Of a DNA stretch of 64,000 bases, positions 43,131 through 48,936 are shown piece after piece. A program made the position numbers and the translations under genes. The stretch is from Curvularia clavata (lineage: Eukaryota): contig CP089281.1 of the NCBI GenBank assembly GCA_023920165.1, positions 1,178,001 to 1,242,000 of the forward strand. The letters run 5' to 3'. Below the pieces are notes generated by a model. It saw only the letters and a program-made list of their open reading frames with translations, searched no databases and was not told the origin of the DNA. The first letter of the stretch is position 1; every line of letters begins with the position of its first letter.

Positions 43131-45087
43131 TCAAACATCATACCGGTCCGATTTATGATGCACAGGCGTATAAGTAAAATATTCAAACTCGGCCACCTTT
43201 TCCGTCCCATTCATATCCGACGCCGCGACGCCTACAAACGCGCCTGTAAAACTACCATGTCTGTTCAAAGTCAGTATTCATCTCCCTTGCATACATGTAT
43301 TCGGAAGAGGAAGAAACTTACGCCTGATGCCCTCCACACTCATCACTCAAAATCGACGCATCATACACCGGCCCAATGTTCTTCAATTCCTTCTCTCCCT
43401 CAAGTGCATACTTGAACTGCAGTTCTGGGCCCCGTATACTCAGCGCGAGCCTAACTTTACCCTCTTGTGGAATTTGGACCGGGTCCGGAAACGGCATTCT
43501 GAGATTGCCATCGGGCCAGGAGGCCTCAGAGCTCATGAGGAGCAGTTCGCGTTTACCGTCAGAATGCGCGGTAACGGCTAGATAGAAGAAGTTGAAGCGG
43601 CAGTAGTAAGCTGTTAGTCCGGCAAACGTGCGCTCATCATCTGGAGCGAAATCAACGACGGTTTCGGCGTCGTAGGAGAAGTGTGTTTGACGGCGGGCTA
43701 CGAGGGCTTGTTCGAACCAGGAGCCGACGGACTCGCGGCCGATGAGTTGGAGACCCGTTTTCCCAAAACGGAAGATGCGTTCGGGTTCAGGGGTACGCAG
43801 CCATTGGAAGTCTTTGTGTAGCGTAGTTGTGCTGGTGAAGTCGTAGTGTTGAGGTGACCAGTAGGCGGTGTCGTCGCGCTCGGCGGGTAGGTCGACATAG
43901 AGAGACGGCACAGGTCCGTTTTTTACGTACAGCCAATCGTCTTTGTCCCAGTAGGCTTCTTGAATAGCGCTCTCGCGGCCCAACACGCAGCGCCGTGCCT
44001 GGGTCGTCGGCCGCCCAGTCAGATGCACCACGTATGTCTTGCCATCGGGCGTGTCGACAATATCTCCGTGACCTGCTCGCTGTAGTGCAGCCAGGGGCGC
44101 ATCTTTAGACGTAATGATGTACTTCTGCGGATGCAGTTCGTATGGACCCCAGATATCGCGCGATCGAGCAAACGTACACGCATGACCATATGCGGTGCCG
44201 CCTTCAGCAGTCAAAAGGTAGTACCAACCGTTTCTCTTGTACAAATGCGGTCCTTCAACGAGACCGAGTTCCGAACCGGGGAAGATTGTTTTCCGCGGTC
44301 CAACGAGTTTCTCTGTCTTCTCGTCCCATTGCTGCATTCTGATGCCCTGAACATGTAATGTCAGCATGCTCACTCATAAAACTCCACGGGTTTGAAAATA
44401 CTGACAGAGAAGTACTGCGGTCGCCTCCGATGATCCTGAAGCATATTGATAAACCACTTCTTCCCGTCATCATCGTGAAACAAAGACGGATCGAACCCCG
44501 ACGAATTAACATAGATAGGGTCAGACCACGGGCCCTCGATCTTATCCGCATGAACAATGTAGTTTGGGTTATCTTTGAACGAGCCGTCCTTGCGCTTGAC
44601 ATCGGTGTATACGAGCCAGAACTTTTTGCCGTCGTGGGTCAGACAGGGTGCCCAGACACCTTTTGCAGAAAGTGTTATGTCAAGATTCAGTTAAAGTTTA
44701 GCAGAGAAACATACCGCAGCTATCTGGGTCTCCACGCATATCCAACTGGCTCTTCCTTGTCAGCGGACGCGTGACAAGGTCCCAGTTGGCCAGATCCTTG
44801 GAGTGGTGAATTTGTACGCCAGGAAACCATTCAAACGTCGATGTGGCAATGTAGTACTAGGAACAGCAGGAGTTGTATTAGTTGATGCCTCGGTTGAAAT
44901 TGACTTTTTTGTCGAGTTGTGTTACTCACTGCCTCATCTCGTTAGCTTGCCATTCTTCTCTTGGAATTGACCCAAAATAAAACAATTATAAAAACAGAAA
45001 AGATGTAGACATACCATCATCTCCCACCCTCAACACGGAAGGATCCGCATTGAACCCCGGCAGAATCGGATTCCTAACCAACGGCAT
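43131..45087 (-). CDS. Intracellular GH43 beta-xylosidase/arabinofuranosidase (XynB-like); first intervening sequence is a stwintron
   Basis: [67 protein letters not shown] and C-terminal [10 protein letters not shown]; no signal peptide. Confidence 0.92.
44857..45015 (-). other. [D1,2] spliceosomal twin intron: internal 45014-44929 (86 nt); external 45015 + 44928-44857 (73 nt)
   Basis: Minus strand reads GATGAT|G|GTATGT..GCTAAC..CAG|TGAGT..ACTAAT..TAG|TACTAC; only two-step excision gives in-frame DD-YYIATS. Confidence 0.88.
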
Positions 45088-45907
45088 GTTGCTCTTTTAC
45101 TCTTTCTTCTCCCCAAGGTAAGATAAAAGTAAAATGAATTGTTAGCGAACAACGTCAGAGTAAAGCACTAGTTTTTTCCCTAGAGCGGTGCCTACAGCCC
45201 TATTATGTACTACAGCTAGGTAAAACACCAAGGCCTGAAATTTAACCGGGCGACACGCGCTTGTTCGGTTCGACTACTTTTGCCGGCGCCTGTTTTGTTT
45301 GGCCAAAATCAGTATTTCGGGGTACTCGGCGGTTTGACCGTGGTATATAGTAACCCCGCCATAGCCACCCACGTGTGAGGCAACAAGGGAAGGCGGGGCA
45401 GATACATCACGTATTCTGAGCATGCCACTTCTCTTTGCAAATGCTACGGCTCTTCAAGCTCCAAAAGGATTCTGACAAGTCACCAATGATTACATATGTG
45501 GAGCTGATCATGCCGTTTATGCCTCGGCATACCAAATACAGAAGTCCGTATTTGGCAATGTAGTCTGTAGTAGGAGTGGGGATGGACGTGGGGCAAAGGC
45601 TAAAAGGCACATAAACGTACCGTCTGTATCACCAGTATAACACACAACATACACACACAGTTCAAGAAGCTAGGACTGGTATACGCTCATTACATTATCA
45701 ACATCGTAGCGCCCGCCAGCCAAAGGAACCATCGTGAAGACAGATTGGGTATCTTTTTAAGGAACCGATGAACCTGCTACATACGACTCAGATGCCATTC
45801 CGGCCACTCAAAAAGTCTATTTGGTGTTTTGCTTGTTGCACCGAGTGTGAGGCAGACTAGCTCGAGCCGTAGCCTGTAGGGGACAAGATAGGTATGGGTA
45901 GTTAGGT

Positions 45908-47846
45908 TCAGACACTTGAGATACCTTGGTTATTTTCCTCGGCTTCCTCCGATTCCTGATGAGCAGCAGATGCGTTGTTTGATGTCTGGTCGGGGTTGGG
46001 TGTAGCAACGACGCCAGCAGGCAAAGAAAAGCCCTCTCCTTCATCGGTATCCAGTTGCATTAGGAAGGTCTCCCAGATTTCGATAAGCTAGCGCAACCGT
46101 TAGCAAAGTCTAGAAGGTTAAGGTAACGTCAAACCTACCTCCTTCTGTGCTTCTACAGCACTCTCCAGGAACGTCTCCACCCCTGATTTGAAGTCTTCCA
46201 CCTTTTCTCGTTCAAAGCGTTCAAGCTCGCTACGCATAAGACGACCCATGTCATCGAAGAGCAGTCTAGCCTGATGCACCTTGCGTTCGGCATCGGCAAC
46301 GTCTGCGCTGAGTTGGTTCAGACGATCCTGCTGTGATCTGCCTTGCCTCAGAAGCTTATCCTGAGTCGCCTTTCGCTTCTGCAGCTCTTGCTCGGCGGAA
46401 TGCCAAGAGTGGTAGGCCTTTTGTCGCTGCTGGAACGCGGTCTTTACGGAGCCGATCAACCGTATGTACTCGTCAATCACAATGCCCATAGTGAGAACGT
46501 CCTGCTGGGCCTGGCGTTCGTAGAGTTCACGGATGCGGATTTGGATGTCGGAGAGGCTGTCGAGGGGACCGGATAGGGCAGGCGACAACTCCACAGCAGA
46601 CAAAGAATGCAGAGAAGCTGAAAAGTCACCACAAGCTTCAGCTAAACCCTTTCGCTGAGATACAACGGTGTCAGTCGCCTTGAGAAGAGCCTTGAGCTGT
46701 GCTTCAAGCGCATCGAGATAGATTCTTCGGTCGTGGAACCACTACAACGACTGTCAGTATAGAAGTAAGAAAACATAGACTAGCAACGTACATCGTCATG
46801 CTCGATGAACTTGCCGGTACTGCTACCAAGCATGGAGCCAAACATGCCCTTGCTCTCGCCCAGGCCGGGATCTTTGCGTTCCTTGTTCTTGATGTCCATG
46901 TTGAAAGCCTCGCTTTCGAGGAACAGCTTCAAGTCGCTGTCATGCTGCAGTACAGGATGAGCCGCTGACTTGTTGAGCATGCGCTCCAGGGCGGCGCGCC
47001 GAGATTCGACAAAGTCGGCATCGAAGCGACCAACAGCCTGTTTTTCTGGAGGCGGGGGGATGATGACACCAGGGTTATTGTTGTGCAGCTGGTTGTACAG
47101 CCAGAGGAAGTCGCGGTAGCGGCGCGAGACTGTGAATTCCGGATTGCGGTAGCCCTTGGAGGTCGTCTTGGTCGTGACCGAGTACTCAGTGTGGGAGCTG
47201 GTCAGGTCGCCAACCTTGTGGGGGTCGCCTACGGAGATTGAAAAGGATGGCTTCGCCGCCTGCTCGACGCTGACGCTTGGTTGTGTCTGGCGCTGGGGCA
47301 CGGGGTGGGAGGGAGCCTGGACGGGAGGAGGTATCCTCGCCCCTTGGGAGGCCCGCAGCTGCTCGTCATCATTGTCGTCTAGATCAACCGAGTCCATCAT
47401 GCCGCGCAACGAGGAGGCCGAAGAAGCACCCGCTGCTGGCCGGGCACCGCGCGATGCCGCAGCCGCCGCCTCCTTCTGGGGAGGCGCTGGGGCAGTTATC
47501 TCGGGGCCTAGTTCTGGGGTAGATGCTCCCAGTGGGCCCAGAGGATCCTCGACGGCCTCGAGCTTGGTCGACTGAACACCATGGGGTCGCCGTCGGGGGC
47601 CGCGGCCTGCCGGAGATCGAGGCGCGGAGGCAGCAGAGGGAGTAGCATCGGCGGTAAGCTTGTTTGTGGGTGCGGATGAGTCTGTGTCGGGGGCATCATC
47701 GTGGCCCAGCTGCTTCGAGGCACCCGGCGCAGGGCTCGATTGTGAGGGCACATCTGCAAGGCATGTCAGTCTGGCGCGGAGTAGCAAGCGGGAGAGAGTT
47801 GGCATTTACCGCCCCATGGAGAGCTTTCTGCGTCGCCCAGATCCAT
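45908..47846 (-). CDS. VPS5: Sorting nexin Vps5 (PX-BAR, retromer); 4 exons
   Basis: PX motifs VGDPHKVGDLTSSH, VSRRYRDFLWL and PPPPEKQAVGRF; BAR end FKSGVETFLESAVEAQKELIEIWETF. Confidence 0.93.
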
Positions 47847-48110: not shown

Positions 48111-48936
48111 TCACATACTGGGTCCGCCCAGACTCGCCTTGCCATGCTCACAAGTATAGCACACCTTCCCATCCATCGAGCCCAGCCTCATCATCCCCAT
48201 CGTCAGTCCCATGCGCTGACCCAGATGCACAACCCAGCTTTCCACAAAGATAGTGGAACCTATCGGCGCTGGTCTCAAATACGTGCAGTTGACTTTGGAC
48301 GCACCAACAGTTAGCAACATTCTCTGACCTGACTCGGAAAAGCCAACACTTGATATCAAACTTGCAGACGCAAAAGGCGATCGGCACTTACTACCAATGC
48401 ATTAGTAAGACTCATAATCCTGTGCTCATTCACAAACCTACCGATTCCTTGAAACATGCCCCGTATCCCAGAACCCCTCGCGGATACACGGGGAAATAGT
48501 CAACGAGGTGACGAGATCAAATATCATGGCCACCGCGCCACCATGCAGCGTCGCATTCATATTGCACAGTTCTTCCGGCACCACGAAGCTAAACACTGTG
48601 CGGCAATCATGCGGATTGCCCTTTGAAGGATTGTACGTGACCGACTCGAGTTTGAGAATCTTGCACAAGATGGCGTCGTGGCCCTAAAAACACACAACAC
48701 GCCAGCTATTAGAGTTTGTTGAAATGTCGCATAGAAGAGGGCAGACATGCTTGGTATTCCAGTGACGACATCATATTAAACTGTTATTTGGCACACGAGA
48801 GGGGCACATGTCAGCAGGGTTTCATGGGCGTGCGTAGAGACATAGTGGTACCAACCCAGTGCGCGACTTTATCGTACGGAGAATCGGATAGGTTGTAGAT
48901 CAACTTGGGTGCTTTCTTTTCCTCTGAATCACTCAT
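48111..48936 (-). CDS. PaaI/hotdog-fold acyl-CoA thioesterase (ACOT13-like); exons 48936-48856, 48780-48751, 48683-48443, 48292-48111
   Basis: LCNMNATLHGGAVAMIFD and spliced GHVSRNLNCTYLRPAP; the model needs a GTTGGT intron, a GC-AG intron and a stwintron. Confidence 0.85.
48293..48442 (-). other. [D1,2] spliceosomal twin intron: internal 48441-48391 (51 nt); external 48442 + 48390-48293 (99 nt)
   Basis: Minus strand reads AATC|G|GTAGGT..ACTAAT..TAG|TAAGT..GCTAAC..AAG|TCAACTGC; internal excision recreates a perfect GTAAGT donor and gives N-L-N-C-T-Y-L-R-P. Confidence 0.88.

Follow-up and report, generated by a model that had tools for sequence, protein, structure and literature searches.

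A transcript-supported [D1,2] stwintron in a predicted GH43 beta-xylosidase gene of the Pleosporales

In a 64-kb stretch of DNA, here called the window and meant at its full length, a gene for a glycoside hydrolase of family GH43 is interrupted by a stwintron which is real, supported by transcripts and conserved in its lineage. We read the interrupting sequence, positions 45015-44857 on the minus strand, as a [D1,2] stwintron that is spliced in two nested steps, and we put the probability of this reading at about 85%. The [D1,2] architecture is known and rare, and we found no description of this instance in the literature searched.

Stwintron layout and splice signals

The whole intervening sequence measures 159 nt. 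An internal intron sits between bases 1 and 2 of the donor of an external intron (G|TGAGT), which comes to 73 nt if the separated G 45015 is counted. The elements are, from exon to exon:

45016..45087, minus strand: exon 1 of the GH43 gene, with the start codon at 45087-45085; 24 codons ending VGDD (GGA GAT GAT)
45015, minus strand: lone G, i.e., G1 of the external intron's split donor; kept in an unspliced contig and absent from the mature junction
44929..45014, minus strand: internal intron, 86 nt, fitting the internal half of search model A (see below)
45014-45009, minus strand: internal donor GTATGT, among the 24 donors that model A admits
44946-44941, minus strand: internal branch motif GCTAAC, 9 nt before the acceptor
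44931-44929, minus strand: internal acceptor CAG, from the sequence
44857..44928, minus strand: remainder of the external intron, 72 nt, fitting the external half of model A
44928-44924, minus strand: TGAGT, the rest of the external donor, giving GTGAGT together with G 45015
44882-44877, minus strand: external branch motif ACTAAT, 17 nt before the acceptor
44859-44857, minus strand: external acceptor TAG, from the sequence
44715..44856, minus strand: exon 2, opening TAC TAC ATT GCC; [10 protein letters not shown]

Every sequence feature that defines a [D1,2] stwintron is present in this region, namely a G|GTNNGN start, DYTRAY and HAG within the internal intron, and U-R-W-G-Y behind the internal acceptor, where CAG|TGAGT yields GTGAGT. 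The 159 nt contain exactly two branch-like motifs, each correctly spaced from its own acceptor. None of the canonical GT..AG pairs yields the junction found in transcripts: translation of the product of the distal pair alone (GTATGT to TAG), which keeps the G, gives VGDD, eight further codons and a stop, and retention of the external part likewise runs into a stop.

In the proposed pathway, ordinary U2 splicing would first excise the 86-nt internal intron, with GTATGT as donor, the A of GCTAAC as branch point and CAG as acceptor. This cut would join G 45015 to TGAGT and thereby create a perfect GTGAGT donor, from which the 73-nt external intron would be removed in a second step via ACTAAT and TAG. 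The exons would then meet in phase 0 as GAT GAT / TAC TAC and encode the conserved [14 protein letters not shown]. Since contigs cannot show an intermediate, we infer from the observed layout and from precedent that an intermediate exists and which of the two cuts comes first.

The same junction might also be reached by another nested route, through a different internal acceptor or in the [A2,3] order, and genes with overlapping [D1,2] and [A2,3] routes do exist (PMC5587772). We consider such a route very improbable here, because exactly one AG within the 159 nt precedes T-R-W-G-Y, and because the [A2,3] rule (PMC9024468) requires the last AG to be followed by G. Here T stands in that position, which means that an AG cannot be rebuilt and the [A2,3] order is closed, leaving two-step [D1,2] splicing as the preferred reading. 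An earlier, sequence-only reading of this DNA had proposed the stwintron, and its minus-strand coordinates and motifs proved exact to the base. It had also stated that one-step splicing from GTATGT to TAG retains an extra G and causes a frameshift, which the translation with its stop after eight codons bears out, and it had rightly regarded the [A2,3] alternative as barred by the T after the last AG.

As a control for chance matches, search model A, published for [D1,2] stwintrons (PMC9024468), was run over both strands of the 64-kb window. It matched at two loci only, both on the minus strand, at 45015 and at 48442/48438, with zero matches on the plus strand. In 100 dinucleotide shuffles of the window the mean number of matches was 0.14, and 13 of the 100 shuffles contained at least one match. 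The 159 nt at 45015 match model A end to end; when their inner 149 nt were shuffled with the first 7 and last 3 bases fixed, 30 out of 20,000 shuffles still did so. A relaxed [D1,2] pattern combined with a 30-codon open-frame filter pointed to six further places. These were deemed unreliable, and the search missed the true stwintron, because exon 1 is shorter than the filter.

Host gene and transcript evidence

Removal of four intervening sequences joins five exons into an open frame of 540 codons. Downstream of exon 2, the gene consists of:

44660..44714, minus strand: ordinary intron 2, 55 nt, GTATGT..AAG, omitted in contigs of runs X5, X9 and X13; an intron also occupies this position in a related metagenome locus (L011)
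44406..44659, minus strand: exon 3, PF04616 profile positions 68-145
44347..44405, minus strand: ordinary intron 3, 59 nt, GTCAGT..CAG, omitted in X5, X9 and X13
43322..44346, minus strand: exon 4, coding for the last part of the GH43 catalytic domain and for the C-terminal beta-sandwich domain (PF04616, PF17851)
43261..43321, minus strand: ordinary intron 4, 61 nt, GTAAGT..CAG, omitted in X5, X9 and X13 and also retained in one X5 contig
43131..43260, minus strand: exon 5 with the stop codon, from the sequence and the contigs

Exon 4 scores 133.4 bits against PF04616 (cut-off 32.2) and 118.5 bits against PF17851 (cut-off 22.7). Exons 2 and 3 each pass the PF04616 cut-off alone, whereas exon 1 alone reaches 20.5 bits and stays below it. 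Residues 5-24, from exon 1, correspond to positions 2-21 of the PF04616 profile and exon 2 to positions 22-66, which follow directly, indicating that no residue is gained or lost at the junction. Among the homologues of exon 4, a GH43 protein of Bipolaris sorokiniana ranks first with 95% identity, followed by proteins of Stemphylium and Pyrenophora, which places the source of the window among the Pleosporaceae, near Bipolaris. The XynB-like GH43 frame that the sequence-only reading had assigned is upheld by these domain matches and homologues, and the predicted product is a cytosolic-type GH43 beta-xylosidase (XynB-like) with a C-terminal GH43_C2 domain.

Contigs of four sequencing runs (X1, X5, X9 and X13) were aligned to the gene. 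X5, X9 and X13 come from three studies and carry three organism labels; the RNA type of the runs is a guess. In each of these three runs, contigs join 45016 directly to 44856 and omit exactly the 159 nt from 44857 to 45015. The skip ends in CT..CC on the plus strand, corresponding to GG..AG on the strand of the gene, and its placement is unambiguous (both = 0). The same runs also omit the three ordinary introns, with GT..AG ends and with borders identical to those derived from the sequence. All four intervening sequences are thus missing, which identifies these contigs as spliced transcripts, and their mature junction does not contain G 45015. The junction GATGAT|TACTAC, which the sequence-only reading had expected aligners to report as a 159-nt GG-AG intron, is therefore present in all three runs. 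No joint in these runs omits only the 86 nt and no contig lies over 44925-45001; contigs drop rare forms.

The fourth run, X1, provides a single unspliced contig which spans the whole gene, comes from a different strain and keeps G 45015 as well as every splice signal. Compared with the window it shows 12 substituted bases and an insertion of 9 nt behind 44881. This insertion lies inside the 159 nt, together with six of the substitutions (44914, 44919, 44936, 45002, 45004 and 45008), and the differences touch neither the lone G nor any of the donors, branch motifs or acceptors. Six random substitutions would spare the 30 motif bases of the 159 nt with a chance of about 0.29, which is not significant; the pattern is one of compatibility with the splice motifs, not of demonstrated constraint.

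Two further observations concern the X5 contigs. For intron 4 (43261-43321), this run contains both a spliced contig (60 nt, depth 6.2) and a contig that retains the intron (121 nt, 43231-43351, depth 8.5), which suggests that intron 4 is partly retained. A spliced X5 contig also reaches beyond the start codon, by at least 213 nt on the upstream side (45088-45300). This would mean either a long 5' leader or an overlapping transcript; contigs cannot show where a transcript starts.

Conservation in related loci and in gene models

A metagenome scan gave 544 confirmed related loci, of which 80 were kept, and 78 of these 80 cover the stwintron site. In 77 of the 78 loci, with fungal and bacterial ones taken together, there is no intervening sequence at this site. 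Most of the metagenome matches span ∼1.6 kb for 542 residues, and the whole gene appears to be intronless there. In locus L013 there is, instead, an ordinary intron located 5 nt downstream of this position.

The sole locus with an insert at the site is L011, with 80% protein identity and VGND in place of VGDD, as in Pyrenophora. Like the gene in the window, it has four intervening sequences. Its insert measures 202 nt, lies at the same codon boundary and is composed of a G, a 54-nt intron (GTAAGA..GCTAAC, 10 nt, TAG) and then TGAGT..ACTAAG, again 10 nt, and TAG. The exons of L011 align with those of the window and its second intron is in the same place, whereas the stwintron sequences cannot be aligned; the layout is kept and the sequence is not. 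L011 lies outside strict model A in two respects: G is the last base of its external branch motif, and the external intron exceeds the permitted length. The sequence-only reading had suggested a comparison with orthologous loci, and this one orthologous DNA does retain the split donor and both branch-point regions.

This locus bears on a rival explanation, according to which the 159 nt are excised in a single reaction, as a non-canonical GG-AG intron, and the nested signals play no part. The contigs are compatible with such a step, as they display only the end product, a GG..AG skip, and no intermediate. Against it, a U2 donor requires GU at positions 1-2 (PMC9024468), a complete nested intron followed by TGAGT was as rare by chance as the shuffling of the 159 nt indicated, and the nested layout recurs in the diverged L011. 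Intermediates have moreover been demonstrated for other [D1,2] cases (PMC5639578). We therefore regard one-step removal as unlikely and retain splicing in two nested steps.

Gene models of homologous proteins give a further view of the junction. Among 159 homologous proteins examined, 102 have the N-terminal motif, and in 87 of these the sequence is contiguous across the junction, with the pattern (V/I)xxDYYIA. The other 15 models are non-contiguous, with insertions or with conserved sequence skipped, and all belong to the Pleosporineae:

Bipolaris: 6 non-contiguous models
Stemphylium: 3 non-contiguous models
Neocucurbitaria: 2 non-contiguous models
Parastagonospora: 2 non-contiguous models
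Pyrenophora: 1 non-contiguous model
Pleosporales sp.: 1 non-contiguous model

The spurious inserts are 2 to 16 residues long (DG, DP, DGT, VRYP, VSARSSTKT, GMVSRER and a 16-residue stretch). One Bipolaris maydis model reads VGDD-VS, where VS is GTG AGT translated after removal of the internal intron only. Several further homologue models have their N-terminus cut short and begin only at or after YYIATS. The correct junction is found in two members of the cluster, a 540-residue Bipolaris maydis model and one protein seen on 22 contigs.

If the lone G were a sequencing or assembly error, the true gene would have an ordinary 158-nt intron, and the sequence-only reading had named such an error as grounds for giving up the stwintron. 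We found nothing in favour of such an error and assign it a negligible probability: the unspliced X1 contig of another strain keeps the G, a lone G likewise precedes the GT donor in L011, the junction without the G is unambiguous in three runs, and 15 Pleosporineae gene models stumble at the same place.

Known stwintrons and a second candidate

Recursive splicing at ratchet points in long animal introns follows a comparable principle, as the first step likewise regenerates a 5' splice site for the second. There, the GU donor of the upstream exon is used first, whereas in the GH43 gene the first donor would lie one base inside and both introns are short.

According to PMC9024468, [D1,2] is the commonest stwintron type described, with more than 1500 instances in the Hypoxylaceae alone. 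The unique [D1,2] stwintrons of Hypoxylon sp. CO27-5 and other Hypoxylaceae (Fekete et al. 2022, PMC9024468) have the same layout of five motifs and likewise show precise removal and a +1 frameshift from the distal sites; the present case differs in its host, which belongs to the Dothideomycetes and Pleosporales, and in its GH43 gene. An underlying symmetry is reported for all 117 stwintrons of the Hypoxylon study (PMC9024468), in contrast to the 159 nt described here, for which no marked secondary structure was predicted (fold, z = 0.20).

For the lipS [D1,2] stwintron of Aspergillus nidulans and A. niger (Flipphi et al. 2017, PMC5639578), removal in two steps, detection of the intermediate and a newly formed gugagu donor have been described. 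Both the insertion point between G1 and U2 and the gugagu donor are the same as in the GH43 gene. The lipS stwintron resides in a different gene and in phase 1, and its intermediate was seen experimentally, whereas here the position is phase 0 and the intermediate is one that we infer.

Alternatively spliced [D1,2]/[A2,3] stwintrons are known from Trichoderma reesei dhaoS and from the alternative oxidase gene of Helminthosporium solani, another fungus of the Pleosporales; in them, as here, the overlap between a pair of U2 introns is the G of AG|T (PMC5587772). In these two genes a G follows the last acceptor and either internal intron can be removed first; with a T in this position, the GH43 stwintron would allow the [D1,2] order only. 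Within the portions of the stwintron literature examined, H. solani is the only Pleosporales species that has been studied experimentally.

In the main texts of the primary stwintron papers searched we found no description of the GH43 stwintron. These papers mention neither a xylosidase nor GH43 nor Bipolaris, and none of them ties the Pleosporales to the GH43 gene. Literature coupling a twin intron with a xylosidase was likewise not found. The strings "gh43" in PMC6616335 turned out to be GenBank accession numbers and not mentions of the gene.

The second model A match in the window is a further [D1,2] candidate, 150 nt long (48293-48442, minus strand), in a 4HBT thioesterase gene located two genes upstream of the GH43 gene, 3.3 kb away. 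Its parts are G 48442, an internal intron of 51 nt (48441-48391, GTAGGT..TACTAAT..TAG) and TAAGT..GCTAAC..AAG, and its removal would give GHVSRN|LNCTYLRPAP. The junction is gapless in seven of 14 homologues; the other seven, from three Bipolaris, two Alternaria, Paraphoma and Parastagonospora, have insertions, deletions or frameshifts.

On the minus strand, the gene order from 48683 to 43131 is thioesterase, a PX-domain sorting nexin (about 46118-47805) and GH43. In several relatives, public annotations merge these neighbours into one long model, of 1093 residues (Pyrenophora tritici-repentis), 1038 (Dothidotthia), 841 (Bipolaris maydis) or 792 (Alternaria panax). These fused models probably stem from two unrecognised stwintrons, of which the one at 48293-48442 is a candidate.

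Because the site is empty in 77 of the 78 metagenome loci, the GH43 case bears on the origin of stwintrons, which may form when an intron enters a donor that is already in place, or may come in complete. The sister stwintrons of Hypoxylaceae and Xylariaceae (PMC8469720 and PMC12403724) are also of the [D1,2] type and, as here, occupy a position that most relatives leave empty. They are multi-copy, similar in sequence and bear terminal inverted repeats, in contrast to the GH43 stwintron, which is single in the window and has no strong fold: a short-word BLAST search of the 64-kb window found no second copy of either stwintron, and the two candidates are dissimilar to each other.

Speculatively, both stwintrons could be the worn remains of an old burst in which whole [D1,2] units were inserted in an ancestor of the Pleosporineae. 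The idea starts from a gene that lacks an interruption at this site in nearly all relatives yet has four intervening sequences in the Pleosporineae, among them a full [D1,2] stwintron at a formerly empty position, and from a second candidate two genes away, where the genera with failing models overlap; we consider it improbable. If it were true, the two would be akin to the sister stwintrons of the Hypoxylaceae, and this mode of intron gain would be extended to a second fungal class.

The GH43 stwintron provides a well-supported example of a rare architecture in the Pleosporales, in a gene whose best protein match comes from the cereal-pathogen genus Bipolaris. Tools for gene finding and spliced alignment that require GT-AG ends will go on misannotating such genes near the catalytic N-terminal motif, and the practical value of the finding lies in the correction of a widespread annotation error in related fungi.
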